This document shows positions 2,638-41,500 of a stretch of DNA of 64,000 bases, piece by piece (positions within the stretch are counted from its first letter, which is position 1; each line of letters starts with the position of its first letter). This DNA is from Amphiscolops sp. MND2022 (taxonomy: Eukaryota): the NCBI GenBank assembly GCA_964187785.1, contig OZ076418.1, forward strand, positions 38,874,001 through 38,938,000, written 5' to 3'. Under the pieces are notes generated by a model. It did not search any database and was not told the DNA's origin. It worked only from the letters and a program-made list of their open reading frames with translations. Both the position numbers and the translations under genes were made by a program.

Positions 2638-2872
2638 ATCACACCAGCGTTATCGTTCAAAACAACAAAAATTGGCAAACCATGTTTGTTTCGGACAATT
2701 CGTGTTCGTTTGGCACTTTTTCTGAGGGCATAGTCTTATAGTTGATCACAAAATCTTCTCAACACATGTCAATGAGGGCAGAAGGCTGTTTGCTGTACTT
2801 CTCATGTTTAGCCTTGGTCCACAAGTAAGATGCTTCTCGTCCATCTATTTGGACGGCCTCATTCTGAGGATC

Positions 2873-15429: not shown

Positions 15430-16533
15430 ATTTTTTTAAAGTTTTTAGCTTTAATGAAGATCTATTTTAGCTTTGATGAAGATTTTTTGATCTTATTCAA
15501 GTCTTACTTATACTCAAGGTCACAATGTGTATCAATTAATGGCTCCCTCTCCCAGATGGTGGATATTAATAGCGGTGTACTTCAAGGCAGTGTCCTCGGA
15601 CCTCTTTTCTTCATTATTTTTACAAATGATCTTCCTGACAAATTTGTCAATTCCTCATGCTATTGGTTTGCAGATGATAGTAAATTACTGTCTCTTCTGA
15701 CCAAACCTGATTTACAAAGGGATATTGATCACTTTCCTGAATTGTCTTACAGGAACAAAATGGAATATAACATTGACAAGTGCAAGTCAATCACTTTCGA
15801 GGAAACATTAGCGTCGTCGGATCCTCTGTTTCTGAACGGTTATATTGTCCACACCGTTGACTCTAATATTTGACCTTGGAATCACCATTTCAAACAAAAT
15901 TACATGGGACAACCATATTCAAAAGAAATTGGTGGCTGCTAGAAAAGCTTATCTTTTCTTGGAGCGCTCAATTCCTCATAGTGTTAGTTTTTCCACAAAG
16001 CTTATGTACTACAGGTTGTGTGTTCTGAGTATTTTACTATACGGATACCAAAAATGGTACCCCTCCATTAATTACCGACGGAAGTTGGAACTATTCAATA
16101 AAGAATGCTTTTTTGGGTAACTTGTTTACAAAATTTTTCACAGCAGCTGGCAGCGTCAACCACCCTACCTCTATCATTCTATTTGGTCCTAAATGACATG
16201 ATCTTCCTCAACAAGGTCATAAAAAGCAAATATGACCTAAATCTCAGCACCTTTATTTGTTTCAGCAAACGTTGCAAGGATCTCAGAAGTTCCAAATACC
16301 AACAACTCCTGCCAGTCAAAAGATGTCGCAAATTCTCCACGAGAGACTCCTTCTTCCAAAGAGTCTGTGACTACTCCAACTTCCTCGCCACAAAAGAGAT
16401 TGACATTTTTGACCCAACTGAAAAATTTAAACATGAACTCATGGCATACCTACGCAATCTAGTCCCAATGTTCAATTTAGACCGAAGCTGCTCCTGGTTT
16501 ATTAAATGTCTCTGTAGCATCTGCCGCTCTTAG
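15430..16533 (+). mobile_element. CR1/L2-like LINE RT C-terminal fragment
   Basis: SYLYSRSQCVSING, SGVLQGSVLGPLFFIIFTNDLP, WFADDSKL, DLGITIS, LSILLYG and DSFFQRV; ends CSWFIKCLCSICRS*. Confidence 0.9.
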
Positions 16534-16720: not shown

Positions 16721-18715
16721 AGTAGTAGTAGTAGTAAAAGCCTCAATTCACTGAAGACAGGAAGCGTAAACAACAAAACGTATGAGTGCTGCATTTACAT
16801 GTTTGAAAGATATATATTTAGAAAGAAATACGATATCAGGAACGACACACAAAACATCTACTTTTCACATGATAGGTACACATGTTATTGTAGTTAAACT
16901 TTGTTCTAGTCAGATTTGTCAAATATTCAGAAAGTGCATGTTTGAATTTTTCCAACGGCCAATTAAAGTCAATGATTTTATCTGCAAGTAACACATTGCT
17001 TATCCAAGGAGCACGAATACAATGCTTTTCCATGGATTTCCACATTGAGGAGTAGCTGATTTCAAAAAGATCAAGTCGTGAATTTCTGGTTGGATTGCAT
17101 TTTTGCTTCAGAGGCATCGTAATATGGAAATGGACACGTTTGTTCACTATTTTCCAGAGAAAAATGACATCGGCCCAACAAGTTGATAACAAATTGGAAG
17201 GAGATCCAATCTTTCCAAGGTACATTCATAATCCAGGCCAGGACAGATCCATCGGAGCACTTTTTCTGGAAATTTTCCAAGCACTGTAGGCTAAAACAAC
17301 AAGGGGCCCAACAAGGTGAAGCATACAAAAGAATACTCAGAACTGAAGTTTTATACAACATTAACTTCTTTCCAGTTGAGAGACTAAACGGTAACACACG
17401 TCTGATAAATTTGATCCGTTTTTGGATTGCTTTTAGGATGTGATCTTTCCATTTTAAATCTTTTGATATCGGGACACCTAAATCCAATATTTGATCTACG
17501 GAAATGAATGGGTTTTCTCCAAGGCGTAACGTCGAAGGTTGCGTTGAATTTGAGCAGGGGAAAAGCTTCAACTTTGTAGTATTGAACTCCGTTCCGTTAT
17601 CATCAGCCCATTGTAGTAGACTGTTGATATCCATTTGGGTTTCAATGTTGGGTACAGTTGCGATCAGTTTGAGATCATCTGCAAAAAGAAAATCATGTGT
17701 GTATCGAATAACAGAGGGTAAGTCGTTTATAAATAAGAGGAACAACAGGGGACCCAGGGTGCTGCCTTGTGGTACTCCCGAAGTTATGGGCAGAATGCTT
17801 GAGCAAATGTCTTCAGAGCGAACACATTGTGAGCGGTCTGAAAGATAAGAGGCAAGTAACATTGTGACATTTCGATCAAAACCAAAAGACGGGAGCTTTT
17901 TGATGAGAAGATCATGAGGCACAGTGTCGAAAGCTTTCGCAAAATCGAAGTAAACACAAGATAAGGGGATGTTTCGATCCAAACAATCATACAGGGCATC
18001 GAGATAGTGAATCAGTTGGGTTACTGTATTTCGCTTAGTCATAAAACCGAATTGTGATTTGACGATTTCAGCTCTGACACGAGGATAAATATGATCGAAA
18101 AGTATCTTCTCTAGAATGAGTGAAACGCGTGGTAAAATGCTTTTCGGCCGGTAGTTAGTAACACAAGAAATAGATCCAGACTTATGCAGAGGGTTTATGT
18201 AAGCTAATTTCCTTTCGGAAGGCCAGCTACAAGATTGAATATTGTACTGCAGGTGCAATAAGATAGCCAGTATGTTTAAGCACAAAACAAGGAATGCCAT
18301 CGGAAGCACAAGCAGTTGAGTTGTCAGCAAGTGTTAAGAGGGATACGATAGTTTCTAATTTGATATCGAGGTCGTTCAACGAAATTTCAATGTTTTCGGG
18401 CCATACCATGTCATCAAGGTTTACCATAGTAGCTGGTTTGTAGACGGAGGCAAAATATTTATTTAGCAGTTCACATTTTGAAAAATCGTCAGCTGCTGTA
18501 TTGTCACCATTTTTGAGCGTATTTGGTAAGCCCCTTTTTTTTATTAAGAGACCGTAATAAATTGAAACAATGATTAGAATCTTTCAAATGTAGGTTTTCA
18601 ACTAAAGAGGCTTTGTCTAATTCAGTGGAGAAAGATAGATTTTGTTCACAGATAACGAGAGAAGCTGCATAAGAGGCGTTCCAATTTTTATATAATTTTC
18701 TATGTAAAGTGTTTT
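16721..18715 (-). mobile_element. 5'-truncated CR1/L2-like LINE with largely intact RT and an (ACT)n tail
   Basis: ORF 17071-18330: NYRPKSILP, QFGFM, YFDFAKAFDTVPH, SGVPQGSTLGPLLFLLFINDLP, FADDLKL. C-terminus in ORF 16836-17225. (AGT)n tract at 16721-16736 on the plus strand. Confidence 0.93.
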
Positions 18716-20584: not shown

Positions 20585-23500
20585 GTAAAAATTTTGGTAC
20601 GTTTTTGTTGTATTTTTTTCGCATTTTAATATAATCTTATCATGAATTCATCATTTGATATCCAAGATAACTGCTGTCAAATACGTAGCAATTAGTTGTC
20701 AAATTACCTGGTGAAGTTTTTGAAAATCAAATGTTTCGTTTCAGGCAAACCAGTGAAATCGAATATTGCTGTTCAAGCTATCCCCAGAGACATCAGACAT
20801 GCAGCGGTTGAGGTTAATTCATTTCATATCTCCATTTTGAATTTTGATTACTTCCCAAACCCTGAATGCATGGATACTGTTGAATAAAATATCGCAACGT
20901 TCTGTATGTAACTAATTGATGCTCTTCTTACTATACACAAGCTTAAAAATCTGTATACTCAGTAAGAAAGTTTGATTTTTTGTATTTTTCCTTTTACGTT
21001 ATTAAATCATTCGGAAAGGTCGCTTCAAATACCCTTCGTCATAAAGAAGTCGCTATAGAGTCCAATTTACGTGAATAGGCTCGCACTTTAATTGTTGTGA
21101 AAGAACAAAACTCTTGAAATTGCTTGACGTATTCGCTAGAGTTTTTTGAATGTGTCTTTTAGTTGAGCGAAAAACCGACAGTTTTGTGAGTAAAATGCGT
21201 TTTTCGATGTTTTCTTTGTTTCGAGAATATTTTTCAAAATGTTTCATGATTCGTCGCTATAAAGACGGAAAATTCAAACGGTGAAATAGCAACTTCGTCG
21301 GCATAAAAACCGATTGGTTTATGTTTGCCGTTCTATGAAAGAAAATTGTCATCTTTAACATAAGTTTGAAACTTTGTTCAGATATGGGTCATCAATCTAA
21401 TTTTCATTATCAAAAAACATGTCGCTACAGACGCAGTCATAGTCTCACTCCTCTCTGGTTCCCAAACATCGTAATGCTCAAATGGGCACATCTTATAAAA
21501 ATCGAAAGCGTTGCAGTCAAAAATCAATGGGTGTTAGACTTCACCTGATTTTGTCATAATCGAAAATAACCAAAAATAAATAAAAATTATTTGAAAGTTA
21601 TTTAAGGCATATTACACCATTGTGCATTATAAAACTTTCAATGAGTCTGGAAAGGTGGTTCAGTATTTCGAAATAATGAAATGGATAATAGGTACTTTTA
21701 TCGAAAAAGCTCGGTGTGAAAAAAAATTGAGGCTGTTCTCAAATAGCTGTTTGAAAAAGGCCAAATTTTCGGTAAACTGGTTGATCCAATTGTTGCTGAA
21801 AAATTACAATCCGAATTAAGTGCTTCTTCTCTACGTCTCTCCACTTCGAATCCCCTGTTCATTTGTCCAATGATAGTCGAAATGAAATAACCAGCGCATC
21901 AACTCCGATATCTTTCCTGCACAATAGTTTTTCGGGATGCTTTGGCCAGCCTTTTTTCGGCAATATCAAGTTTTTGCAGTATATCTGTCCACGCCATGTC
22001 TCATTAGATTTCAGAAAGAATGTAAATGAATGGTGGTCTTGTCCTATGTGTTGTACTATAAAATGATATTCTGTCTCTAGATAGACACAGCCCGAGGAGG
22101 TGGTGGTGGCGGTGCTGGTAGACAGAACTACTTGAAGGCCATGATTGCAGATCTGCAGAATGACGTCAGAATGAAGGAGGAGGAGCTGGAACACGTGACT
22201 GAGTTGTGTGACTCCACCAAAGAAAAACTCATCCAAGTTAGTAAGGTTTTTTACGACTGTTGAGAAATTCTCTTTGTATTCACCACTTTTGGTTTCTATT
22301 TTTTTTTCATAATTCTGTTATACTTGAATAGCACGGTCCCGCAAACATTTGAAACATGTTTCTGGGATGTCTCTGTACCACTGTACTTGAGCAGATTTAG
22401 ATCGCGACTACTCTGTTATGATAATCCATGATTCACTTCGTTTCATATTTGAGTCGAGAGTAATTATTTTATTATTTGAGTGATTGAGAAAAATCAATAC
22501 AGACAGAAGCAGTCCGTTTTTGGTGGAAACGACTAACCGAAACTCAATTGGATTTTGAAGACCATCTCGTTTTGAGTTTACTATTAACATCATAGTGTCA
22601 CTATTTTAGGCATTGCTCGACAAATAAGATTACGTCACGATATTTAGTTGGTTTTTGATGTTTTTAGAGTGAGCGCAGAGTGTCTGAGTTGGAGTACGTA
22701 GAGCTGAGAGTTGTTGAGCTTGAGAATGACGTCATGACTAAGGAGAAGATCATCATGGATCAGACTCAGAACATACATCAGCTCAAGACACATCATGCGG
22801 ACACTGTAAGCCGCATGCTCAAAGAGGTATGTGTACTCACTTCTCTGTTTTTATCTGGATGAGGTTTTCGTTTATAGTAGTAGTTTGTTTTTATGTATTC
22901 TGGTCGAACTTAGGGGAGGGGGGGTTTAGTTTATAAAAATTTTGCACAAAGTCCCGGATTCGATCCCGGGACCTCAAGGATGAAAATCAGGGTATCTAAC
23001 CATTATGCCACGAGACCTTCCCAACTAGACATAAGGTTCCATAAATAACGATCACTCATTTAATTCGTAAAAGTTATCAGAGACGGTTGACTCTGTAGGA
23101 ACATGAACGGGACACAGTTGATTTGGGTAGTGCTTTTTGACCTTCACGTTTATTGATGCAATTCTTACAACTCCAATAATATAATCCGACTGTCTAAGGG
23201 GGGTGCGTCAGCTTGCATATTTTTTTGACCGGTTGAAACAAGATTAAGCGGCGCTTGTCTGAGAGGGGTGCGTCAGCTTGCGTCTGTCGTCGAACCCGAA
23301 TAACCTCCGATAGGTCAATTTAAGAACAAAAATTCTCAAAAATATAATAAAAAATCTCCAACTTTGTTGCAAATCAGTTAGCCTCACAAGCAAAAATTGT
23401 TGAACATAACCAATTCTCACATGCAATATTTGATTGGAAATACCATTTCAGATTGAAACTAAAAAAAATCAAAAGAATCAGTGAAACAAACCTATTTCGC

Positions 23501-26500
23501 ATTTTTCTAATTATTATGTCCTTTGGCATATTTCTTTCAACAATCTGATATGCTAGTTTCAATCAACTATTCGTCTTAGTCAAAATGAGAACTTGTGATA
23601 TTTGCCAAAAGAATTTTGGAGACAAAAATTTACTTCGTCATCATCGACGACATGTCCACAAAATTCCTGCTTATCTTTCCCATGGAATGCAATGTTTGCC
23701 ACAATATGGAGCTGTCCGTCGCACTAATTGATCAACCCTTTCGAGAAAAACATGGAACACAATTGGAGAAAATGTGTGTCTTTTGCGGGATTGGATTCGA
23801 TATACCTGAAAAGTTTTACAAACACTTGGAAGAAAAACATGAACTACCACCACCTGCTGAGTCTATCAAAGAGAAAACGAACCCGATATCATCTGCTTTC
23901 AACGGGGCGCTCAAAGTGTGCAAAATTGATGGATCATCAGGAGAAAATGACTTGTTACAGTCATGACTGACATCAAACCACAAATTGATCTATGTTGCTG
24001 GTCGAGATTCATTGTCGAAGAGAACAATCCCCGACACTTATTCGCGACGCAACATATTGGCTCATCAAGCTGAAGAAGAGTTTGATATGCCAATGGGCTT
24101 TGGTCAGATGCTTCGATTGGAAAATTGAATGACTGCAAAATCAACGTGTTTAGATACACTGAAAATTAACTGGTTCCCCTGTGAGTAACTCGAGAAAAGG
24201 GAGATGGTCTTGAAATTGACCTGTTGTTGGTGGATGATGGACAAGAGTATCACTATATTTTGATACTTGATTTATTGAGGCTAGTTTCTATGGTTAAAGG
24301 AACCACAACACTGAATCACAGAGTCGTCTGTAGAAACTGTTCCCCCATTTGCATGAATGAAAGCACTAACAGGTGGCATCAAATCAGTTGCTTGCAACAT
24401 GAACCAGCAGTAGTCAAGATGCCAAAGCCTGAGAAAAACAAACTAAAGTTCACGAATCTGGGTTCCCTGTGGTTTGCACCAGTTGTCATATATTTCGATC
24501 TGGATTCAATCATCCAACCTGTTGCGGGCTCTCAGAATGCAAAGCAGCAAACAAGTATCACAGAAATTTATCAACCCAGTGGCTTCTGCCTTCTTGGAAT
24601 TGATAATGGAAACCCTAATCCTATTTTATTGCAACTAGAGCGCTCTCAGAACTGCATGGAAATATTCGTGGAGGCACTTGAAAACATTGCACAGGAAATG
24701 TATCAAAAGAAGCAAAGCAACTGGTACTTTCGAGACTCAGTACCTGAAAGGCCTCAAGAAGCCGAATTTTGTTGGATATGTGAAGGCCAATTTGGTATAG
24801 TCAGAGACATCGAGGACGACAAGGTCATTGACCATTGCATTACTCGGGAAAGTTTTTGAGATTCGCGCATCCAGAATGCAATCTCAAAAGGAAGGCAATC
24901 AATTTCATACCAGTCATGGCCCACAATCTGTCAAACTATGACCTTCATCATGTGTGTTTATTTATCCACAAGTTCAAACCCTGCTGCAAAGTAGACGTGA
25001 TACCAACTACTGATGAGCAATACATCATTTTAACGATCGGAGTACCTGTGAGGAACTACCAAGTCAAAAACGGAATAACAAAAACTCTGCGTTTGAGTAT
25101 TTGCATTTCATTGCCTCGTTCAGGTTTATGGCTTCTTCACTCGAAAAACTTGCAAGCTATCTGCCAAAAGAAAAGTTCAAGATACTGGACAGTTGCTTTG
25201 CTAACTATCCGGAATCAGACAGACCTCTTGCATCAGAAGGATTTTATCCCTACTCATACATTAGTGAATTTGCCAAATTTCGAGAGGAGAAACTACCACC
25301 GAGAGAACAACAGAAAGATTCACTGCGGAACGGTGCAATAATGCTGACTGAAGAGGAATGGAATCATGCTGAGAAAGTCTTTGAAAGATTCAAATGCGCC
25401 AATTTGGGTGATTACCATGATTTTTACCTCAATACAGACACTCTGATACTAACGTGCGTGGTTGAAGAATTTCGAACCCTCTGTTACAATACCTATGGCT
25501 CGGACCGCGCCCATTACTTCACCTGCTCGCATTTATCTGGTGACGCTTTCTTGAAAAAATGAAGTACTTCAAATCGAACAACAGATACGTGACCGAGCAC
25601 AACTATACTGACTAACACTTACTGGGTGGTATTGTACGCAAATATCTTGTATGGGGGTGTCATTGAAAAGCTACCACTATCATTGAATAGCTTCGAGACA
25701 GTTCAAAAAATTGACCTCAACAAAATCTTGGAAACATCTAACGACTCCGAACAAGGATACATTTTAAAGGTGGACCTTCATTACCCCGATAAACTACATG
25801 ATGGGCATCAAGTATTTCCATTAGCCCCTACGGAAGAGAATATACTACAAAGGCCTCGGAGAAACTCAACAAGAGTTGTTGAAAATAATGGCGAAACTAA
25901 ACCATTCAGTCAAGGTAAAAAGTTGATTCAATCACTGTCGGACAAGAAGAATTACACAGCTCATTATATTACACTGAAACTCTACGTTAGCCGTGGCATA
26001 GAAGTCAAGAAAGTACATCGGGTGTTAAAGTTTAAACAATCTTTTTGGCTTAAACCATACATGGAGCTAAACACAACAGAGAAAAGACTCGAAACAAATT
26101 CGGAGAGTTTCTTCAAATTAATGAATAACTCATGCTACGGGAAAACTCTTGAGAGCAAACGAAACCGCCTCACTGTCCAGCTTGTAAGCAACAGAGAAAG
26201 TCTTTTGAGGAGAACAGACACCCCGTTCATTTGTGAGTTTAAAATCTTCAATGAAAGTCTTGCAGCTATTTCGTCAAGGAAAAGAACCATCTTGTGGAAC
26301 AAACCAACAATTGTTGGAGCATCTGTTTTTTTAGACTTGGCTAAATTCCACAGGTTCAATTTCCACTATAATGTCATGAAAAAGCACCTGAACTGCTTCG
26401 TGTTATACTCAGACACAGATTCTTTGTTGTATGAGATTAAATACACAGACTTTCATGAAGAGCTAGCAACCAATGATGAGCTCCGCCAGCACTTTGACCT

Positions 26501-29500
26501 CTCCAATTACCCTAAAGAACATCACCTCTATAACGTTGATAATAAAATGGTCACACTCAAGTTCAAGGATGAACTTGGAGGAGAGCCAATCGAAGAGTTT
26601 GTCGAACTGAAACCCAAAATGTATTCAATCATGGTTGGAGGAAGGCAGAAGCTATCGGCAAAGGGTTTGACTGAATCATGACCTGTACAAAAAAAATTGA
26701 AAACTGGGGAGTCCTACAAGACTGTAAACATGCAAATAGGCTCGCAAAAGCACCAACTACAAACAATCAAGACGAACAAGGTGTCTCTCAGCTCCTTTGA
26801 TGATAAGCGTTATGTATTGGAAGACGGCATCTCAACATTACCCCTTGGTCACTACATGATCAGAGATGTTCATGTTAAGCAAGACTTTATGAATGAGCCA
26901 GAATGGGGATATGAATAGGAAGAGTTGCCATCAAGTCGCACATGGGATGAATTGAACGGCAATGATCCGCAAGTCACAATCACCCAAATATTCCCAGATG
27001 AGGCTCCGATGCCGGCAAATGCTCCTCTTTCATCAACATTGCGTGTGCGAGTAAGTGAGGATGAGCCAATCTCATTAACTCAACAATTGATGGAAGCATG
27101 GTCGCCTCCCGATCCGGACATGCACCAAAGAGAGTACGGTGATTCCGAGCTGGAAGACCAATTCAGTAACATGGACGAATCAGTTGAGGAGCGAAGCCCT
27201 CCGAGAAATCTTCTACTGACGATGAGGCAGTGGAAGCATCAGATACAGGTGAAACTGCACACGAAGATGACGAAGAGTCAGACCATAACGACTGTATTAT
27301 TGTCGAGACACTGACAGAAGACGAGGCGACGCCATTGAAGACTTGGAATACCTGATTGATTTCGACAATTGCTTCAACGACGATGAATTTGTGAACCGCA
27401 TCAAAAGAGCAAAAAGAAGGCGTCTGGAAATTGTGAGCGAGAGCGAATAGAACTTCATGTTATTTCATTTGCTACTAGCTAGTCTGCATGCTGCGCTTAT
27501 TGTTTTACTTTGTATTGTTCTCAAGTACCTGTTGAGTAAACTTTAAGTAGCTACAAATGCTTTAGTAACTTCGTGAATTCAGTGTTTTGCTCTCATATTA
27601 TTGGCCGGCCTGTTGTCTAATAGCATAGATTCTCCATAAAATGAAATGGAACGAACTTGGCTATAAAAGCAAAAAACTGGGCTTGAATGTCGCCCCCGGA
27701 GGCCCTATTGCGGCCCCATAGCCGTAAAACGGAAAAAGCTAGGCTATAAAAGCAAAATACTACCATTATATGCCGCCACCGCATGCCTTATTGCGGGACC
27801 GTAGCCGTAAAATGGAAAAAGCTAGGCTATGAAAGCAAAATACTAGGCTCACATGCCGCCCACAGGCGTTTTCGCGGCCCCATAGCAGTAAAATGGAAAA
27901 CGCTAGGCTATAGAAGCAAAATACTAGGCTTACATGCTGCCCCGCAGGCCTTATTGCGGCCCCACAGCAGTAAAATGGAAAAAGCTAGGCTAAAAAAGCA
28001 ATAAACTTGGCTTATATGCCGCCCCCGGAGGCCTAACCACGGCCCCATAGCAGTAAAATGGAAAACGCTAGGCTATAGAAGCAAAATACTAGGCTTACAT
28101 GCTGCCCCGCAGGCCTTATTGCGGCCCCACAGCAGTAAAATAGAAAAAGCTAGGCTAAAAAAGCAATAAACTTGGCTTATTTGCCGCCCCCGGAGGCCTG
28201 ACCACGGCCCCATAGCAGTAAAATGGAAAACGCTAGGCTATAGAAGCAAAATATTAGGTTTACATGCCGCCCCACAGGCCTTATCGCGGCCCCATAGCAG
28301 CAAAATGGAAAAAGCTAGGCGATAAAAGCAAAGTACTAGGCTTACATTCCGCCCCGCAGGCCTTATCGCGGCTCCACAGCCGTAGAATGGAAAAAGAATG
28401 CGTTAAAAAGCAAAATACTTGGCTTATATGCCGCCCCCGGGGCCTTACTGCGGCCCCATAACCGTAGAATGGAAAAAGCTTGGCTATAAAAGCCAAATAT
28501 TGGGGTTTAATACCGCCCTCGCAGGCCTTGCTGCTGCCCCATAACCGTAGAATGGGAAAAGCTTGGTAGAAAAAGCAAAATACTGGGCTTTAATGCCTCC
28601 CCCGCAGGCTTTACTGCGGCCCCTTAGCAGTAGAATGGACAAAAGATGCATAATATAACAAAATCTTTGGCTCATATAATGATTTTGTATGCTCATATGG
28701 TTGACTGTAGCTATAAATTGAAAGAAAGTGATATGTACGTACCAGTGTGCAGTGTTCTCTTCTGTTGTTTTCTTCATTCTGCTTCTTTTCTGTTACCGCC
28801 CCCCAAAAGCTTTAATATATCCTAGACCTGACGCGTGGTAAAAACCGTGGAATCGGAAACACCGCAAGAATGACCTTTCACACATCCACAGTCCTTACCC
28901 AGGCCGTTCTCACACATAATTCAATCGTTAGCAAAAAAGTGAGAAGGTTGCTTTACTTGATTTTAGATAATGCCTTGTTAATTGCTCTAATACAAGATAG
29001 AGTATTATCAGAACCAGTGATATCATACTCAGTCAAGTCCATCAGTTCGAAAATTTTGCGTACAAGTGGTGATCCTTTGCAACCTTCATCCTTTTTGGCT
29101 GCTCTGATAACAACTTTCACGTCCTGACATTTGCCTTCCACACACGTAGCCAACTTCTCACCAACAAATCGGAAATTCATCTCAGCAATTTCACGGGCTT
29201 TTGATTCAGCGAGACTTCTTGATTTGCCAATTTTCTCGCCTATGCCAATCGATCCTTTGCCGTCTGCTAACATGACACATGCCAAAAAACGAAAGCGCTG
29301 TTGGGTTTTGCCATCTTTCTCAGTCGAAATTCTCTAGAGGTATGCACTTCAACAGTTCTTATTTTTTCACAGACTCGGGCTGTACAATTCGAACTTTGGC
29401 AGGTGGTACCGCCATCATATTTTTTTCTTCCGAAAGGTCCGAGATCGAACTCTTAATATAACTACGCAGCGCATTTTACTTTCGAGGGCATTTTAAGTCG

Positions 29501-32500
29501 TTCTTCTATATAAAATTATTTTTTTGGTGTGAAGTGTGATCTTGTTTCAAAGTTTGAAAAGTGTTTTGAAAAAAGTACTAAAAGTAAAATCTCTGCAAAA
29601 AGTCAAAGAAACTAACCTTAGTTTGATGATCAAGAGATGAGACGATAGGGAAAAATTTTCTCCGGGATTGTACACTGCTGTCAAGATTCCGAAGGTACCA
29701 ATTCAATGGATATCAGTACACAAATGTTCAATGCATATCAGGATGTAACATTTAATTTCTAGGAGAAACTTTGAAAAATTTCTAAGGAAAGAAAATCTTT
29801 TCAAGAAGCGTAATAACCACTTGATAATTTTTCCGTTCAATTTCATTAGAAAAATTAAACTATGAGTTCATATTAATCCTGATGTGCATTGAGATACTGA
29901 TTCGTTTGCTAAGCTGGGTGATTCATTCAATTTTTCCGGAAAATGTAGACAAAGTCGATAGACTTGATTTTCAGGTGAAATAGAAAAATTAAGCAGAATT
30001 AAACAGTTGGAGAAATGCAACAGATTTATCTGCTGATGCGATGACAAAGTCGATAGACTGGATGATTTCTAGTTGAAAATAGAAAAATTAAGCAGAATTA
30101 AACAGTTGGAGAAATGCAACAGATTTATCTGCTAATGCGAAGCTTGCAAGGGACTGAATAAACAAAGAAACGGTAGTCAGAAATTAGATGAGTAAAAGCC
30201 CGAAAGATGAAGAAATTTGAGACAAGTAAAGCTGCAAAGTTACAAAAGATTTGTTTATCAAAGAGAAAAGTGCAAGGGTCTGATTAAACAAATTGAAGAT
30301 AGCCAGAAGTTAGTTGAGTGAAAAGCTGTCGCAAACAATGTAGTTTGTTAGTTTAAATTTGGACTGACCAAACAAAAGATACACTGCTCAAAGTATTCAG
30401 GCACTTCATCAAACGACAAATGAAGAATTCCGCCTGGAATGGTTCACTTCATATTAGCATTCAAAAGAATTTCCGCATCAATTCACACTAAGAATGTTCG
30501 AGGGTCCAACGAAAGAGTCTGGAAATATGGCAAATGATTTTATGAACCAGAGAATATTTTCGTAAAGTTTGTCAAGCCGAACGCATGTGTTCGAATCCGG
30601 CGAATATGAAGATATATTTTTGGATTATATTTAAAAGCGATGAATGTTGGATTATATTTAAAAGCGATGAATGACAGTTAGTCGCAATAACTAACCGGGG
30701 AGCCGCTACAGGCTGAATGGTTTTATAATGGAAAAAATATATGTCGATTTCAGTTCGCGGTGGTCAAGTGGTTAGCTACTCTGACTTTCTGTCATGAGGT
30801 CCCGGGTTCGAATCCGGGACTTTGCAAAGTTTTTATAAACTAAACCCCCCCCTAAGTTCGACCAGAATACATAAAAACGAACTACTTATAGCTTTTATAT
30901 CGGTTAGATTATTGGACGTAGCTTGAAATCAAATAGGTGTATTTTTAAATCATGCCTGCAAAAGGGGTAATTTGCTAATCAACGCTATTATGATCTGATG
31001 TTTTGTGTCAGTTTTCCTACAACCGGTCTTTCTAGTTTCTTGCGAACTTGCGTATGCTTGAGTAAAGCTTGAATTTTTCCGGTTAAAAACCTGACCGAAT
31101 CTCAACTGAAACCGGTCGTTGTTTGGATTGAAATGAGCCATCGGGAACTAAAATCTGCAGCTCTCGATTTCAATAGAGATCAGGCCGAAAGATTTGGACC
31201 TGAAAAGACAGAAATAACCAGTTGGTTTATTTTTGTTCTACCGTTTTTGTGCTTCGTTGGTGAATGTTTTAAAATTCAAGCTTGATGTTGATCTTTTACA
31301 AAATGAAACGTTTTGATTGTTCAGGCCGATCAAAGGGTTGAAGAAGCCAAGGAGTCTCAGCGAAGCCATGTTGAATTCAAGCAGACCAAAATCAATGACG
31401 TCAAACACGAAATCTCAAACATGATCAACCAGTCATCGCTGTTAGTCGTTCATCATCACGGCTCAGTTATCCACATTCAGTTGCAACGTTACTTTTAACC
31501 CCAGTTAACCTAGCGTCACTTTAAATTTCTTGGAAGTTTGAAGAAATGCCCATGTCTATTGGGGTTGAACTTATTTCATGAAAATGTCAAGATTTATTCG
31601 GTATTATGTTGATACGATTCACATAAGAAATACTACAAACTTCTAGTGCGGATGGGGCAACGGTTATTCGAGTATCTCTGGTTCTGAAATGAAATTTTGA
31701 CGATTCAAGCGGGACATGGCTATAAACACAATACCATCATAGATTTTTTTCAAAATTTTATTAAATAGTTCCAAAAACTTGCATTTCAAGAACTCAAATT
31801 GTTGATATTTAGTCGGCGCTTCATCAAGAGAAGCGCGACTGTTATAGTGACTTTTTTCAATCCACACGAACCGACCAAAATAGTTCTTAAAAGTTATACC
31901 AAAAATTATGGTGTCAAATTGTACCATTTGGCCTAGCGAACTCGACCAAAAAGGTTTTTCCTGTTCTCCCGCGTGACATACCATACCGGGCGAGACCAAA
32001 AGGTCCCCTCTTTCATTTTTTTTCGGCACTGCGAGACTTTTTCGAAAAAAAATTCCTCAAAGGGTCCCCTTCATTTTTTTGCTGTTTTGCGACAATGGAT
32101 GTTGGAAAATCCCAAAGGGTCCTCCCTTTCAGTTTTTTTCGGCACTCTGAGATTATTTTCGAAAATTTTTTTTTCTCCAAAGGGCCCCCCCCTTTCAACT
32201 GCGACAAAAATGTTGAAAACTTCGAACGTGCCATCCTTTTAGCGCGCCAGGGGCTCGCGCTAGCGGGCCCGGCGCGCCACTTGGTCCTTTTTTGGTTTTT
32301 CGATTTTCGAGTACTGTAAAAGAGAATAGTTGACACTTGTAAGTCCTTTTGCTATTTTTGTGCGTTGGATATGGCGCCGACTTATGTGCCGTTCCCGGCT
32401 TGTTAATATGGATAATGCAAATAGTTAAAAGAATATAAACAAAAAAATCTTTAAATGGAATCCGTTAATATAGTATACTAAGATATATCGCTAAAAATAT

Positions 32501-35500
32501 GCAATATTTTCATATATTGCTATATTATCCAAAAAGGCGGATTTATTCGCCGCTTCAATTTTAGGACATTGCACCGCCTAAATTTTGCTTTTCCAGTCTT
32601 GGTGTTGAGTTTAAAATATGCCAACAGTGAGAGAGGGGAGCAGTTGAGAGACATGCAGCAGAGTCTGCTAGAGAGCAAGAAGGAGAGGAGACGGTTGCAG
32701 AAACTAGTGGACCATTACAAGGTTAGTTGAACTAAATACAGCAGCATCAGTGCTTAGAAAGCAGCACGTCAACCCATGTCAGAGTTGGTTGGTGTATGTG
32801 AATTTCGGGCACCTTTATTACAACATTTCAACATTCTACTGATTCTGGCAGAACTTCAGCTTTTTAGCTTGATTTTTCACGAGAAGTTTCACATGTGTTT
32901 CACACTTCTGGAAATATCAAAATAACCTACTACCAGCCTTCAGTGGTACTAATACAATACCAACAGCTAGAGAGAAGTATCACAGTCGAACTAAGAAACT
33001 TGTATGCAATACAAAAATCTCTAATGAATTCATGAGAAAAAGTTTCTTCATAAGGATTCTACCCCTGTGGAACAGCTTACCATCTTGTCTGGTCAAAAAG
33101 AAATAATGCTGACTGAAGAGGAATGGAATCATGCTGAGAAAGTCTTTGAAAGATTCAAATGCGCCAATTTGGGTGATTACCATGATTTTTACCTCAATAC
33201 AGACACTCTGATACTAACGTGCGTGGTTGAAGAATTTCGAACCCTCTGTTACAATACCTATGGCTCGGACCGCGCCCATTACTTCACCTGCTCGCATTTA
33301 TCTGGTGACGCTTTCTTGAAAAAATGAAGTACTTCAAATCGAACAACAGATACGTGACCGAGCACAACTATACTGACTAACACTTACTGGGTGGTATTGT
33401 ACGCAAATATCTTGTATGGGGGTGTCATTGAAAAGCTACCACTATCATTGAATAGCTTCGAGACAGTTCAAAAAATTGACCTCAACAAAATCTTGGAAAC
33501 ATCTAACGACTCCGAACAAGGATACATTTTAAAGGTGGACCTTCATTACCCCGATAAACTACATGATGGGCATCAAGTATTTCCATTAGCCCCTACGGAA
33601 GAGAATATACTACAAAGGCCTCGGAGAAACTCAACAAGAGTTGTTGAAAATAATGGCGAAACTAAACCATTCAGTCAAGGTAAAAAGTTGATTCAATCAC
33701 TGTCGGACAAGAAGAATTACACAGCTCATTATATTACACTGAAACTCTACGTTAGCCGTGGCATAGAAGTCAAGAAAGTACATCGGGTGTTAAAGTTTAA
33801 ACAATCTTTTTGGCTTAAACCATACATGGAGCTAAACACAACAGAGAAAAGACTCGAAACAAATTCGGAGAGTTTCTTCAAATTAATGAATAACTCATGC
33901 TACGGGAAAACTCTTGAGAGCAAACGAAACCGCCTCACTGTCCAGCTTGTAAGCAACAGAGAAAGTCTTTTGAGGAGAACAGACACCCCGTTCATTTGTG
34001 AGTTTAAAATCTTCAATGAAAGTCTTGCAGCTATTTCGTCAAGGAAAAGAACCATCTTGTGGAACAAACCAACAATTGTTGGAGCATCTGTTTTTTTAGA
34101 CTTGGCTAAATTCCACAGGTTCAATTTCCACTATAATGTCATGAAAAAGCACCTGAACTGCTTCGTGTTATACTCAGACACAGATTCTTTGTTGTATGAG
34201 ATTAAATACACAGACTTTCATGAAGAGCTAGCAACCAATGATGAGCTCCGCCAGCACTTTGACCTCTCCAATTACCCTAAAGAACATCACCTCTATAACG
34301 TTGATAATAAAATGGTCACACTCAAGTTCAAGGATGAACTTGGAGGAGAGCCAATCGAAGAGTTTGTCGAACTGAAACCCAAAATGTATTCAATCATGGT
34401 TGGAGGAAGGCAGAAGCTATCGGCAAAGGGTTTGACTGAATCATGACCTGTACAAAAAAAATTGAAAACTGGGGAGTCCTACAAGACTGTAAACATGCAA
34501 ATAGGCTCGCAAAAGCACCAACTACAAACAATCAAGACGAACAAGGTGTCTCTCAGCTCCTTTGATGATAAGCGTTATGTATTGGAAGACGGCATCTCAA
34601 CATTACCCCTTGGTCACTACATGATCAGAGATGTTCATGTTAAGCAAGACTTTATGAATGAGCCAGAATGGGGATATGAATAGGAAGAGTTGCCATCAAG
34701 TCGCACATGGGATGAATTGAACGGCAATGATCCGCAAGTCACAATCACCCAAATATTCCCAGATGAGGCTCCGATGCCGGCAAATGCTCCTCTTTCATCA
34801 ACATTGCGTGTGCGAGTAAGTGAGGATGAGCCAATCTCATTAACTCAACAATTGATGGAAGCATGGTCGCCTCCCGATCCGGACATGCACCAAAGAGAGT
34901 ACGGTGATTCCGAGCTGGAAGACCAATTCAGTAACATGGACGAATCAGTTGAGGAGCGAAGCCCTCCGAGAAATCTTCTACTGACGATGAGGCAGTGGAA
35001 GCATCAGATACAGGTGAAACTGCACACGAAGATGACGAAGAGTCAGACCATAACGACTGTATTATTGTCGAGACACTGACAGAAGACGAGGCGACGCCAT
35101 TGAAGACTTGGAATACCTGATTGATTTCGACAATTGCTTCAACGACGATGAATTTGTGAACCGCATCAAAAGAGCAAAAAGAAGGCGTCTGGAAATTGTG
35201 AGCGAGAGCGAATAGAACTTCATGTTATTTCATTTGCTACTAGCTAGTCTGCATGCTGCGCTTATTGTTTTACTTTGTATTGTTCTCAAGTACCTGTTGA
35301 GTAAACTTTAAGTAGCTACAAATGCTTTAGTAACTTCGTGAATTCAGTGTTTTGCTCTCATATTATTGGCCGGCCTGTTGTCTAATAGCATAGATTCTCC
35401 ATAAAATGAAATGGAACGAACTTGGCTATAAAAGCAAAAAACTGGGCTTGAATGTCGCCCCCGGAGGCCCTATTGCGGCCCCATAGCCGTAAAACGGAAA

Positions 35501-38500
35501 AAGCTAGGCTATAAAAGCAAAATACTACCATTATATGCCGCCACCGCATGCCTTATTGCGGGACCGTAGCCGTAAAATGGAAAAAGCTAGGCTATGAAAG
35601 CAAAATACTAGGCTCACATGCCGCCCACAGGCGTTTTCGCGGCCCCATAGCAGTAAAATGGAAAACGCTAGGCTATAGAAGCAAAATACTAGGCTTACAT
35701 GCTGCCCCGCAGGCCTTATTGCGGCCCCACAGCAGTAAAATGGAAAAAGCTAGGCTAAAAAAGCAATAAACTTGGCTTATATGCCGCCCCCGGAGGCCTA
35801 ACCACGGCCCCATAGCAGTAAAATGGAAAACGCTAGGCTATAGAAGCAAAATACTAGGCTTACATGCTGCCCCGCAGGCCTTATTGCGGCCCCACAGCAG
35901 TAAAATAGAAAAAGCTAGGCTAAAAAAGCAATAAACTTGGCGTAATACAAAAATCTCTAATGAATTCATGAGAAAAAGTTTCTTCATAAGGATTCTACCC
36001 CTGTGGAACAGCTTACCATCTTGTCTGGTCAAAAAGAAATAATGCTGACTGAAGAGGAATGGAATCATGCTGAGAAAGTCTTTGAAAGATTCAAATGCGC
36101 CAATTTGGGTGATTACCATGATTTTTACCTCAATACAGACACTCTGATACTAACGTGCGTGGTTGAAGAATTTCGAACCCTCTGTTACAATACCTATGGC
36201 TCGGACCGCGCCCATTACTTCACCTGCTCGCATTTATCTGGTGACGCTTTCTTGAAAAAATGAAGTACTTCAAATCGAACAACAGATACGTGACCGAGCA
36301 CAACTATACTGACTAACACTTACTGGGTGGTATTGTACGCAAATATCTTGTATGGGGGTGTCATTGAAAAGCTACCACTATCATTGAATAGCTTCGAGAC
36401 AGTTCAAAAAATTGACCTCAACAAAATCTTGGAAACATCTAACGACTCCGAACAAGGATACATTTTAAAGGTGGACCTTCATTACCCCGATAAACTACAT
36501 GATGGGCATCAAGTATTTCCATTAGCCCCTACGGAAGAGAATATACTACAAAGGCCTCGGAGAAACTCAACAAGAGTTGTTGAAAATAATGGCGAAACTA
36601 AACCATTCAGTCAAGGTAAAAAGTTGATTCAATCACTGTCGGACAAGAAGAATTACACAGCTCATTATATTACACTGAAACTCTACGTTAGCCGTGGCAT
36701 AGAAGTCAAGAAAGTACATCGGGTGTTAAAGTTTAAACAATCTTTTTGGCTTAAACCATACATGGAGCTAAACACAACAGAGAAAAGACTCGAAACAAAT
36801 TCGGAGAGTTTCTTCAAATTAATGAATAACTCATGCTACGGGAAAACTCTTGAGAGCAAACGAAACCGCCTCACTGTCCAGCTTGTAAGCAACAGAGAAA
36901 GTCTTTTGAGGAGAACAGACACCCCGTTCATTTGTGAGTTTAAAATCTTCAATGAAAGTCTTGCAGCTATTTCGTCAAGGAAAAGAACCATCTTGTGGAA
37001 CAAACCAACAATTGTTGGAGCATCTGTTTTTTTAGACTTGGCTAAATTCCACAGGTTCAATTTCCACTATAATGTCATGAAAAAGCACCTGAACTGCTTC
37101 GTGTTATACTCAGACACAGATTCTTTGTTGTATGAGATTAAATACACAGACTTTCATGAAGAGCTAGCAACCAATGATGAGCTCCGCCAGCACTTTGACC
37201 TCTCCAATTACCCTAAAGAACATCACCTCTATAACGTTGATAATAAAATGGTCACACTCAAGTTCAAGGATGAACTTGGAGGAGAGCCAATCGAAGAGTT
37301 TGTCGAACTGAAACCCAAAATGTATTCAATCATGGTTGGAGGAAGGCAGAAGCTATCGGCAAAGGGTTTGACTGAATCATGACCTGTACAAAAAAAATTG
37401 AAAACTGGGGAGTCCTACAAGACTGTAAACATGCAAATAGGCTCGCAAAAGCACCAACTACAAACAATCAAGACGAACAAGGTGTCTCTCAGCTCCTTTG
37501 ATGATAAGCGTTATGTATTGGAAGACGGCATCTCAACATTACCCCTTGGTCACTACATGATCAGAGATGTTCATGTTAAGCAAGACTTTATGAATGAGCC
37601 AGAATGGGGATATGAATAGGAAGAGTTGCCATCAAGTCGCACATGGGATGAATTGAACGGCAATGATCCGCAAGTCACAATCACCCAAATATTCCCAGAT
37701 GAGGCTCCGATGCCGGCAAATGCTCCTCTTTCATCAACATTGCGTGTGCGAGTAAGTGAGGATGAGCCAATCTCATTAACTCAACAATTGATGGAAGCAT
37801 GGTCGCCTCCCGATCCGGACATGCACCAAAGAGAGTACGGTGATTCCGAGCTGGAAGACCAATTCAGTAACATGGACGAATCAGTTGAGGAGCGAAGCCC
37901 TCCGAGAAATCTTCTACTGACGATGAGGCAGTGGAAGCATCAGATACAGGTGAAACTGCACACGAAGATGACGAAGAGTCAGACCATAACGACTGTATTA
38001 TTGTCGAGACACTGACAGAAGACGAGGCGACGCCATTGAAGACTTGGAATACCTGATTGATTTCGACAATTGCTTCAACGACGATGAATTTGTGAACCGC
38101 ATCAAAAGAGCAAAAAGAAGGCGTCTGGAAATTGTGAGCGAGAGCGAATAGAACTTCATGTTATTTCATTTGCTACTAGCTAGTCTGCATGCTGCGCTTA
38201 TTGTTTTACTTTGTATTGTTCTCAAGTACCTGTTGAGTAAACTTTAAGTAGCTACAAATGCTTTAGTAACTTCGTGAATTCAGTGTTTTGCTCTCATATT
38301 ATTGGCCGGCCTGTTGTCTAATAGCATAGATTCTCCATAAAATGAAATGGAACGAACTTGGCTATAAAAGCAAAAAACTGGGCTTGAATGTCGCCCCCGG
38401 AGGCCCTATTGCGGCCCCATAGCCGTAAAACGGAAAAAGCTAGGCTATAAAAGCAAAATACTACCATTATATGCCGCCACCGCATGCCTTATTGCGGGAC

Positions 38501-41500
38501 CGTAGCCGTAAAATGGAAAAAGCTAGGCTATGAAAGCAAAATACTAGGCTCACATGCCGCCCACAGGCGTTTTCGCGGCCCCATAGCAGTAAAATGGAAA
38601 ACGCTAGGCTATAGAAGCAAAATACTAGGCTTACATGCTGCCCCGCAGGCCTTATTGCGGCCCCACAGCAGTAAAATGGAAAAAGCTAGGCTAAAAAAGC
38701 AATAAACTTGGCTTATATGCCGCCCCCGGAGGCCTAACCACGGCCCCATAGCAGTAAAATGGAAAACGCTAGGCTATAGAAGCAAAATACTAGGCTTACA
38801 TGCTGCCCCGCAGGCCTTATTGCGGCCCCACAGCAGTAAAATAGAAAAAGCTAGGCTAAAAAAGCAATAAACTTGGCTTATTTGCCGCCCCCGGAGGCCT
38901 GACCACGGCCCCATAGCAGTAAAATGGAAAACGCTAGGCTATAGAAGCAAAATATTAGGTTTACATGCCGCCCCACAGGCCTTATCGCGGCCCCATAGCA
39001 GCAAAATGGAAAAAGCTAGGCGATAAAAGCAAAGTACTAGGCTTACATTCCGCCCCGCAGGCCTTATCGCGGCTCCACAGCCGTAGAATGGAAAAAGAAT
39101 GCGTTAAAAAGCAAAATACTTGGCTTATATGCCGCCCCCGGGGCCTTACTGCGGCCCCATAACCGTAGAATGGAAAAAGCTTGGCTATAAAAGCCAAATA
39201 TTGGGGTTTAATACCGCCCTCGCAGGCCTTGCTGCTGCCCCATAACCGTAGAATGGGAAAAGCTTGGTAGAAAAAGCAAAATACTGGGCTTTAATGCCTC
39301 CCCCGCAGGCTTTACTGCGGCCCCTTAGCAGTAGAATGGACAAAAGATGCATAATATAACAAAATCTTTGGCTCATATAATGATTTTGTATGCTCATATG
39401 GTTGACTGTAGCTATAAATTGAAAGAAAGTGATATGTACGTACCAGTGTGCAGTGTTCTCTTCTGTTGTTTTCTTCATTCTGCTTCTTTTCTGTTACCGC
39501 CCCCCAAAAGCTTTAATATATCCTAGACCTGACGCGTGGTAAAAACCGTGGAATCGGAAACACCGCAAGAATGACCTTTCACACATCCACAGTCCTTACC
39601 CAGGCCGTTCTCACACATAATTCAATCGTTAGCAAAAAAGTGAGAAGGTTGCTTTACTTGATTTTAGATAATGCCTTGTTAATTGCTCTAATACAAGATA
39701 GAGTATTATCAGAACCAGTGATATCATACTCAGTCAAGTCCATCAGTTCGAAAATTTTGCGTACAAGTGGTGATCCTTTGCAACCTTCATCCTTTTTGGC
39801 TGCTCTGATAACAACTTTCACGTCCTGACATTTGCCTTCCACACACGTAGCCAACTTCTCACCAACAAATCGGAAATTCATCTCAGCAATTTCACGGGCT
39901 TTTGATTCAGCGAGACTTCTTGATTTGCCAATTTTCTCGCCTATGCCAATCGATCCTTTGCCGTCTGCTAACATGACACATGCCAAAAAACGAAAGCGCT
40001 GTTGGGTTTTGCCATCTTTCTCAGTCGAAATTCTCTAGAGGTATGCACTTCAACAGTTCTTATTTTTTCACAGACTCGGGCTGTACAATTCGAACTTTGG
40101 CAGGTGGTACCGCCATCATATTTTTTTCTTCCGAAAGGTCCGAGATCGAACTCTTAATATAACTACGCAGCGCATTTTACTTTCGAGGGCATTTTAAGTC
40201 GTTCTTCTATATAAAATTATTTTTTTGGTGTGAAGTGTGATCTTGTTTCAAAGTTTGAAAAGTGTTTTGAAAAAAGTACTAAAAGTAAAATCTCTGCAAA
40301 AAGTCAAAGAAACTAACCTTAGTTTGATGATCAAGAGATGAGACGATAGGGAAAAATTTTCTCCGGGATTGTACACTGCTGTCAAGATTCCGAAGGTACC
40401 AATTCAATGGATATCAGTACACAAATGTTCAATGCATATCAGGATGTAACATTTAATTTCTAGGAGAAACTTTGAAAAATTTCTAAGGAAAGAAAATCTT
40501 TTCAAGAAGCGTAATAACCACTTGATAATTTTTCCGTTCAATTTCATTAGAAAAATTAAACTATGAGTTCATATTAATCCTGATGTGCATTGAGATACTG
40601 ATTCGTTTGCTAAGCTGGGTGATTCATTCAATTTTTCCGGAAAATGTAGACAAAGTCGATAGACTTGATTTTCAGGTGAAATAGAAAAATTAAGCAGAAT
40701 TAAACAGTTGGAGAAATGCAACAGATTTATCTGCTGATGCGATGACAAAGTCGATAGACTGGATGATTTCTAGTTGAAAATAGAAAAATTAAGCAGAATT
40801 AAACAGTTGGAGAAATGCAACAGATTTATCTGCTAATGCGAAGCTTGCAAGGGACTGAATAAACAAAGAAACGGTAGTCAGAAATTAGATGAGTAAAAGC
40901 CCGAAAGATGAAGAAATTTGAGACAAGTAAAGCTGCAAAGTTACAAAAGATTTGTTTATCAAAGAGAAAAGTGCAAGGGTCTGATTAAACAAATTGAAGA
41001 TAGCCAGAAGTTAGTTGAGTGAAAAGCTGTCGCAAACAATGTAGTTTGTTAGTTTAAATTTGGACTGACCAAACAAAAGATACACTGCTCAAAGTATTCA
41101 GGCACTTCATCAAACGACAAATGAAGAATTCCGCCTGGAATGGTTCACTTCATATTAGCATTCAAAAGAATTTCCGCATCAATTCACACTAAGAATGTTC
41201 GAGGGTCCAACGAAAGAGTCTGGAAATATGGCAAATGATTTTATGAACCAGAGAATATTTTCGTAAAGTTTGTCAAGCCGAACGCATGTGTTCGAATCCG
41301 GCGAATATGAAGATATATTTTTGGATTATATTTAAAAGCGATGAATGTTGGATTATATTTAAAAGCGATGAATGACAGTTAGTCGCAATAACTAACCGGG
41401 GAGCCGCTACAGGCTGAATGGTTTTATAATGGAAAAAATATATGTCGATTTCAGTTCGCGGTGGTCAAGTGGTTAGCTACTCTGACTTTCTGTCATGAGG

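Follow-up and report, generated by a model that had tools for sequence, protein, structure and literature searches.

A uS5 (RPS2)-derived gene as exchanged cargo of Polintons in Amphiscolops sp. MND2022

Introduction

The closest described relatives of the elements treated here are the animal Polintons, or Mavericks (adintoviruses), whose known features served as the list for our comparison. Most of the Polintons that we examined in the genome of Amphiscolops sp. MND2022 (assembly GCA_964187785.1) carry, between the polymerase gene (pPolB) and one terminal repeat, a gene derived from the ribosomal protein uS5 (RPS2). One damaged copy of this gene lies in the stretch of 64,000 nucleotides analysed in this work (contig OZ076418.1, positions 38,874,001 to 38,938,000 of the forward strand; hereafter the window, whose own numbering is used for its features), where a first reading of the DNA (the original prediction) had noticed it. 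The elements share with the animal Polintons/Mavericks the AGTAGT termini, the inverted repeats, the 6-bp target duplications, a length of 15.6-18.7 kb, pPolB, an rve integrase, an A32-type ATPase and an adenain-type protease, with a candidate double-jelly-roll capsid look-alike as a further putative feature in common. They differ from them in that one terminal slot is regularly occupied by a gene for a ribosomal protein, in the tRNA-like stretches at both termini and in a tandem array bordering the cargo cassette. None of these three features was found for Polintons in our literature search, which also returned no ribosomal-protein gene in a Polinton (supplements, repeat databases and subscription journals could hold one), and ribosomes are not mentioned in the available part of 10.64898/2026.10.13.758929.

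Cargo in Mavericks and ribosomal proteins on virus-like genomes are both already known. Among the virus-borne cases, eS30 is present in antisense orientation in FBR-MuSV. According to the available parts of two further sources, phages encode bS21, bL12 and bL9 (PMC6375957) and Nucleocytoviricota encode eL40, which was called in 2024 the first ribosomal protein encoded by a eukaryotic virus (PMC11499249); uS5 and Polintons are not named in those parts. As in the present case, these genes reside on virus-like genomes and are under purifying selection; they differ in that the proteins are late-binding or exchangeable, two of them having been shown to enter ribosomes, whereas here the gene derives from a core subunit, is hypervariable and has lost the ribosome-contact loop. 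The nematode Maverick cargo wasp/krma (10.1101/2022.07.12.499685, in the part available) is similar in occupying a variable subterminal region of a few kb, in bearing introns and in being exchanged between elements. Nevertheless, it consists of proteases and kinases placed between the left repeat and the integrase, whereas here a core ribosomal protein lies downstream of pPolB, with many alleles in one genome.

A core 40S protein carried by integrating animal DNA elements, under selection and present hundreds of times, would be a second and very different case of a ribosomal protein carried in this way. The uS5 cargo is real, element-borne, selected and exchanged, and its function is proposed below from the sequences. 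The allele series lends itself to studying the activity of a ribosomal-protein fold away from the ribosome and the ways in which endogenous Polintons handle host control, and the mapped cassette borders show how the elements exchange cargo.

Results and Discussion

The window gene

The motifs first recognised by eye lie in a stop-free minus-strand frame at 28953-29333 (126 aa, P0001), and profile searches established the homology to uS5, with both Pfam domains and the uS5 chains of the PDB being matched. Against Pfam, P0001 scored above the cut-off for Ribosomal_S5_C (E 4.4e-6, 26.5 bits) and slightly below it for Ribosomal_S5 (E 6.2e-6, 26.6 bits; cut-off 27.1), while in the PDB it matched uS5 chains from E 2.9e-7, those of 30S and 40S subunits being interleaved. 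The gene, a broken member of subfamily A, occupies 28953-29491 on the minus strand. Its proposed extent (28953 to 29418) is correct at the lower end and too short at the upper one, since the start codon is the ATG at 29491. The N-terminal stop is indeed present (near 29360), and the single frameshift that had been noted turns out to be two frame changes (near 29470 and 29325), all within the first third of the gene. The copy is 93% identical over 123 aa to an intact allele elsewhere in the genome, and a second identical copy lies at 39654-40192 (minus), within a 7768-bp duplication at 100% identity. The description as apparently intronless fits this copy, in which no intron is visible, and does not extend to the family, in which subfamily F and the group-2 elements (see below) have introns. 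As the original prediction stated, the gene ends about 300 bp past an 82-83-bp tandem array (27644-28645) and is convergent with a broken pPolB (about 23585-27450).

A gene family resident in Polintons

Searched against its own genome, P0001 gave 103 matches (150 of 236 candidates being scored), 84 without an internal stop and 19 with one, and with each of the two uS5 Pfam profiles all 150 scored candidates were matches (out of 318 and 347 candidates, respectively). The three match lists together give at least 263 uS5 places in the genome, a lower bound that excludes two host RPS2 and two MRPS5-like loci, merges overlaps and includes fragments and tandem copies. Of the control ribosomal proteins, uS8 and eS21 matched once each, and the four exon matches of uS2 fell on two loci. 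The host RPS2 has the canonical form: a single intron was seen, in the C-terminal domain, and the N-tail is RG-rich and contains the FxxxFG motif. This gene and an MRPS5-like gene occur at two loci each (C5:874 kb and C5:66.37 Mb; C1:84.64 Mb and C1:86.41 Mb).

In 29 places read over at least 10 kb, which were picked regardless of the backbone, pPolB adjoins uS5 in 27, so that the linkage of the genomic copies to pPolB elements is confirmed; both exceptions are tandem arrays of uS5 pieces. Tandem uS5 genes or fragments without a polymerase in the 20-30 kb read are found at C7:42.17-42.19 Mb (L055-L057, at least five near-identical copies) and at C12:37.27 Mb (L109, L110). A full element begins with a terminal repeat and small frames, which are followed by the A32-type ATPase, the integrase, genes for the probable minor and major capsid proteins, the adenain-type protease and a frame in reversed orientation; pPolB comes next, and then the tandem array, the convergent uS5 gene and the second terminal repeat. 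The uS5 gene lies within the inverted repeats in all of the elements read at both ends (16/16 of group 1 and 3/3 of group 2), and the 6-bp target duplications are perfect in 15 of the 16 group-1 elements, the remaining one being shifted by a base. Group-2 elements, whose polymerase is 54-62% identical to that of group 1, have uS5 in the same position. Additionally, two copies from different chromosomes share 99.94% identity across 8630 bp, and therefore the element family moved recently. A search of viral contigs found no relative for a uS5 allele or for pPolB.

The element genes were assigned with differing support. The pPolB frames (about 1475 aa) match DNA_pol_B_2 in a group-2 frame (E 1.7e-10) and DNA_pol_B in the window piece (E 9e-4); several group-1 frames have no Pfam polymerase match, yet match other pPolBs by tblastn. 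The integrase of sister elements matches rve (E 3.6e-12), the packaging ATPase matches Pox_A32 above cut-off (E 4e-5) and the protease matches Peptidase_C5 below cut-off (E 0.0044). The capsid candidates have look-alikes (0.96-0.98) of which 30% of the members are of the double-jelly-roll (DJR-like) type and 24% Capsid_N, a recognition value below threshold, and they have no Pfam match.

The association also holds when the starting point is another element gene. Among the best 150 of 1163 protease candidates, 106 have a listed uS5 at 4-13 kb and in the expected orientation, against 0.17 expected at random. We inspected 20 of the 44 protease places lacking a listed uS5, and 11 had uS5, six had other frames in the slot, two were interrupted and one was without a polymerase. 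L151-L154, L156 (about 6200-9600) and L161 (6998-7966) share the backbone and the terminal repeat and have other frames in the uS5 slot; this alternative cargo consists either of two frames of 115-122 aa or of one frame of 323 aa that resembles JmjC on visual inspection, and no Pfam family was matched below E 0.04 across 13 such frames.

Two structural variants occur among the loci. L068-L070 (C1:26.07-26.09 Mb) hold two inward uS5 genes about 10 kb apart that flank polymerase sequence, an arrangement that suggests a palindromic or doubled-end element. In L091 the far terminus and the first small frame are duplicated 1.46 kb apart (1036-1228 and 2495-2687), and in the lineage of this element the first small frame has an EGF-like match (E 4e-4).

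Selection on the gene

The dN/dS ratio (nonsynonymous to synonymous divergence) was estimated roughly, by NG86, for 129 within-subfamily uS5 pairs. All 22 pairs with dS of 0.05-2 have a ratio below 0.5 (median 0.18), which reveals constraint among the copies; four near-identical pairs, with few changes, gave 0.27-0.90. Together with the fixed place inside the terminal repeats, this purifying selection bears out both the proposed long evolution as Polinton cargo and the view that the gene is unlikely to be a processed pseudogene. The broken state of the window copy and the internal stops in 19 of the 103 matches could still be read as signs of neutral processed RPS2 pseudogenes that came to lie in or near Polintons by chance. 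That reading, which we regard as practically untenable, is refuted by the fixed position and orientation, by the dN/dS of about 0.18, by the introns of subfamily F and group 2, by the controls uS8, eS21 and uS2, which are not multiplied likewise, and by the tree, where the element genes form long branches away from host RPS2. The uS5-derived gene is almost certainly a functional gene of the elements.

Old alleles on young backbones

The uS5 alleles and the rest of the elements differ strongly in age, since the silent sites of uS5 are mostly saturated while dS for protease and capsid is 0.01-0.28 (six elements). Across 43 group-1 elements the median uS5 identity is 26%, a value biased low because the elements were picked to span uS5 diversity; in the same comparison (12-33 elements for each marker) three polymerase blocks are 79-83% identical, and protease, integrase, ATPase and capsid 91-97%. 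Distances between uS5 alleles do not correlate with the distances at any of the seven backbone markers (r -0.08 to 0.07); by contrast, eight pairs of backbone markers correlate with each other (r 0.51-0.87). At the extreme, polymerases 98-100% identical coexist with uS5 alleles that are about 23% identical, and therefore uS5 is a swapped cassette. The borders of this cassette were mapped on pairs of near-identical backbones, in which 96-98% DNA identity continues into the array, breaks off there and returns only in the last 60-100 bp; the terminal repeat itself is correlated more closely with the polymerase (r 0.78) than with uS5 (r 0.33). Since homology breaks at the array and returns in the terminal repeat, the cassette is bounded by these two. 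Smaller swaps occur as well, as in two elements that are 97% identical over 1200 bp upstream of alleles separated by a dS of 1.8. Exchange of cassettes between elements is thus very probable, and we infer crossover during co-replication as its route. Recognition of the tandem array by uS5 was also considered and dropped, since 83-bp and 84-bp arrays each pair with several subfamilies.

These data bear directly on two other explanations. In one of them, uS5 would help the element itself in its structure or replication, by binding nucleic acid in the particle or at the termini; its alleles would have arisen in separate host lineages and been reunited by horizontal transfer, with no advantage for rare alleles. 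The fixed position beside pPolB in two element groups (polymerases 54-62% identical), the net basic charge of all 39 element proteins and the related alleles in other samples (P0062, with a best match here of 45%) are in line with it; however, alleles about 23% identical on backbones 98-100% identical argue against a fitted element partner, and six elements with sound-looking backbones hold other frames in the slot, so that we take a helper role to be very unlikely. In the other, the gene would encode a toxin or addiction factor, harming cells or offspring that lack a protector. This has a precedent in Maverick cargo that gave rise to a toxin-antidote element of nematodes, with the Maverick-derived toxin msft-1 (10.1101/2022.07.12.499685, in the part available), and a dominant-negative uS5 could conceivably do harm. 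Nevertheless, the region upstream of uS5 showed no further conserved reading frame in a comparison of 19 cassettes, and hundreds of copies share the genome, which makes a toxin less credible even than a helper. A second protein in the cassette was dropped as a candidate for the same reason, as divergent alleles share no frame.

A predicted uS5 fold without the ribosomal surfaces

The element proteins contain both the N- and the C-terminal S5 domain in one chain (Pfam), as cytosolic uS5/RPS2 does, and an intact subfamily-A allele is predicted by AlphaFold (pLDDT 83.5, pTM 0.68) to have the strand-helix order of a two-domain uS5. Identity to host RPS2 is 25-43%. In order to see which residues were retained, we took the 67 positions that are nearly fixed in 16 cellular RPS2s and counted a position as kept when its residue occurs in at least half of 39 element proteins: kept were 16 of the 28 G/P/A/C positions and 2 of the 14 basic positions, along with 3 of 13 hydrophobic and 4 of 12 polar residues. 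On neighbouring strands, the basic residues corresponding to host K85 and R100 are retained in 95% and 87%, respectively, and the net charge is positive in 39/39 proteins. Cytosolic uS5/RPS2 has an RG-rich tail, the FxxxFG motif, the QKQTRAGQ loop and a C-terminal tail, and the element proteins have none of these: the QKQTRAGQ beta-hairpin loop, the RG-rich tail and FxxxFG are absent from all 47 element frames (the search for FxxxFG covered the frames without the upstream exons of group-2 genes), the C-terminal tail is missing, and several subfamilies have new N-termini. We take the lost surfaces to have a ribosomal role, the QKQTRAGQ loop presumably contacting rRNA and mRNA in the ribosome. 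Group-2 uS5 genes (L076 784-1264, L105 9465-9945, L075 2013-2493) have apparent upstream exons with long acidic runs and GT-AG introns.

Judging from sequence and model, the pattern reads as an RNA-binding fold that was kept and a ribosomal fit that was lost, and the element uS5 is probably not a substitute ribosomal subunit. The originally suggested role as an RNA-binding or ribosome-modifying factor is an inference; the residue pattern counts against a working subunit. The opposite case would be a hijack of the ribosome, with variants replacing host uS5 in the pre-40S particle and either biasing translation to element mRNAs or poisoning ribosomes. For this speak the two domains and the predicted fold, the N-terminal subdomain present in 14/47 proteins and the precedent of phage bS21 and bL12, which enter 70S ribosomes (PMC6375957, in the part available). 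According to the available part of PMC10216425, however, uS5 is incorporated during pre-40S assembly with a dedicated chaperone (FxxxFG being linked to PDCD2/Tsr4 by a predicted model), unlike the exchangeable proteins that are typical of phages (PMC6375957). Additionally, the low identity to host RPS2 and the loss of loop, both tails and FxxxFG do not suit a replacement, and a conserved target would not account for 26% identity among alleles. We consider a hijack unlikely.

Probable origin of the element gene

On balance, the sequences point to a eukaryotic cytosolic RPS2 as the probable donor. In the PDB, the top matches of the family profile are chains named 40S S2/uS5 (E 3e-44), the family alignment matches host RPS2 in hhalign with a probability of 99.9, and 14/47 element proteins keep a host-type N-terminal subdomain. 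All four subfamily-F genes and both host RPS2 genes are interrupted by a GT-AG intron of phase 1, which lies 19 codons ahead of the end of the ALGK motif (in one element gene and one host gene the match requires a second in-frame acceptor with a better pyrimidine tract); the same site and phase point to capture of a genomic RPS2 gene. The mixed cytosolic and bacterial/mitochondrial character claimed in the original prediction was not upheld, given the 40S chains ranked first by the profile, the N-terminal subdomain and the host intron site in one subfamily.

The trees are less decisive. In one of them, the 24 element rows are separated from all others by a single branch (support 96/94) and stand between eukaryote-type and prokaryote-type rows, and a quick tree of 118 rows places the elements similarly, without nesting beside host RPS2; long branches may be the cause of this placement. 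Approximately unbiased (AU) tests, made on 32 and 29 rows with group labels assigned from sequence likeness, weakly reject a clade of elements with host RPS2 (p 0.023, 0.034) and do not reject elements with bacterial-type (0.07, 0.13) or archaeal-type rows (0.19), so that the donor need not have belonged to the host's own lineage. A bacterial or mitochondrial origin, which the AU tests do not reject, is disfavoured by residue pattern, intron site and PDB ranking. Fifteen library proteins group with the element rows, and the two tested (one of them P0062) have a best full-length genome match of 45%; therefore, further alleles exist in other samples.

Non-coding sequences beside the alleles

Most subfamilies carry their own conserved block 3' of the uS5 stop. 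In pairwise comparison (118 rows, in which some places occur more than once), 723 of 798 pairs at 50-92% protein identity share a 3' block vs 15 of 3472 pairs under 30%, and all 31 genome matches of the subfamily-A block lie behind subfamily-A genes. In five subfamilies, 77-97% of the block is invariant, whereas silent sites in the coding part have reached saturation. In the window, the block is at 28815-28915 (minus) and is predicted to form a G.U-rich hairpin on the uS5 strand; for subfamily A, folding reaches z -2.2 to -2.7 on this strand and -1.3 to 0.4 on the opposite one, with modest covariation (4/24 pairs changed on both sides). That every 3' block forms a stable hairpin was rejected, as it is true only for subfamily A and partly for E1, the blocks of B, D, F, G and H folding no better than shuffles.

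One possibility raised by these blocks is a self-specific switch, in which each uS5 would bind its own 3' RNA block and the two would make up an identity module serving autoregulation, export or exclusion of like elements. In its logic such a module resembles the immunity regions of lambdoid phages. The strict association of block A with subfamily-A genes, its strand-specific folding and covariation, and the invariance of blocks beside saturated silent sites all agree with it. However, besides the unremarkable folding in five subfamilies, block modules are common to C and D and to A and H, block B is common to two protein subfamilies and 10 of its 40 scored matches have no listed uS5 alongside; recombination within a block could also explain its conservation. 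Neither the window element nor any of 20 loci contains an Rfam family that reaches its cut-off, and the weak matches of microRNA type coincide with a palindromic repeat. A switch therefore seems rather unlikely to us, somewhat less so than a hijack. We would give similarly little weight to a broader identity system, in which old uS5 alleles, several dozen in number, would each be coupled to a separate RNA element, would be exchanged among backbones at the array and the tRNA-like terminus, and would steer host RNA handling or translation in favour of their own transcripts, evading both host and rivals.

Some further signals lie around the gene. Most subfamily-A alleles (L004, L006, L009, L012, L021, L023) have a GGTAAG splice-donor-like site about 30 nt past the stop, absent from the window copy; as it stands just before the 3' block, the block may lie in an intron of the 3' untranslated region. 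Pyrimidine-rich, TTTCAG-like acceptor motifs occur 15-45 nt before the ATG in several subfamilies. Outward-reading tRNA-like stretches are found at both termini of the elements read (17 elements). ARAGORN called no tRNA in the window and one among 35 stretches, a tRNA-Glu (L042 1986-2058). The match between the two ends of an element often stops within these stretches, which, to judge from sequence, could be RNA polymerase III promoters, insulators or recombination borders.

A possible mechanism

Old divergent alleles on young uniform backbones point to an ongoing conflict at one gene. The mechanism that we favour, with a probability of about 0.45 for the whole of it, is that the uS5-derived protein is a putative effector that would bind RNA, target the host cell from outside the core of the ribosome and be at an advantage when its version is rare. 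An ancestral element would have captured a genomic, intron-bearing RPS2 gene, which would then have lost its RG-rich tail along with the chaperone motif and the C-terminal tail, and would long ago have diverged into at least 10 subfamilies. Crossover in the array and the terminal repeat would shift the cassettes between co-replicating elements. The protein, with its predicted uS5 fold and basic patch, might serve as a decoy for RNA or for uS5 partners, and so dampen host silencing or translation control; rare versions would evade a sequence-specific host control, and in this way many old alleles could persist on young backbones.

Several observations weigh against this proposal. The backbone genes are conserved though exposed to the same host silencing; the subfamily-specific 3' blocks would fit a protein-RNA switch equally well; and the gene is dispensable, other frames occupying the slot in six of the 20 inspected elements. 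The estimate of constraint is limited, since 103 of the 129 pairs are saturated or have dS above 2, and two of the four near-identical pairs lie at 0.86-0.90. The diversity of the alleles is overstated by the selection of the 43 elements, and FxxxFG could have escaped in the upstream exons of group 2. As to the capture, the intron is limited to one nested subfamily, implying several losses or a parallel gain, and the AU outcomes given above do not favour the host clade.

The element and its surroundings in the window

The window element spans 22879-30886 (about 8 kb; full copies 15.6-18.7 kb) and is a decayed, internally deleted derivative, in which only two pPolB queries of eight marker proteins searched have a match, those for integrase, ATPase, capsid and protease having none. 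Its left terminal inverted repeat (22879-22975, plus strand) starts with AGTAGT and its right one (30780-30886, plus) ends with ACTACT; five of six bases agree between the 6-bp flanks (TATAGT and TATAGC). A tRNA-like stretch with A-box and B-box look-alikes lies at the inner edge of the left repeat and reads toward the element end (22945-23015, minus; seen in the sequence and not called by ARAGORN or Rfam), and another at the inner edge of the right repeat reads outward (30757-30825, plus), its counterpart in L042 being the one called tRNA-Glu(TTC). The pPolB gene (23585-27450, plus) is split into several frames and is followed by the array (27644-28645), of about 12 units, in which the backbone homology of sister elements with differing cassettes ends. 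Upstream of uS5, the non-coding part of the cassette (29492-30756, minus) includes a 99-bp dimer at 29948-30140. A second small array lies upstream of pPolB at about 23190-23290, where many elements carry 62-64-bp units (for example L035 at about 3040-3230, L041 at 3058-3423 and L049 at 3674-3926).

Two repeats at 100% identity, of 7768 bp and 2934 bp, are nested over 25337-43805 and include host flank. A partial copy of pPolB and array at 33102-35941 (plus) is identical to 25337-28176, and 36038-43805 (plus) is identical to 25337-33104, with the second uS5, a second right terminus (41587) and flanking DNA; these duplications may be a very recent event or an assembly artefact. Elsewhere in the window, a copia-type retrotransposon, with the integrase before RVT_2, occupies 47644-51950 (plus), and two reverse-transcriptase remnants and a PIF1-like helicase remnant are found at 17071-18333 (minus), 15271-15873 (plus) and 1409-2649 (minus).

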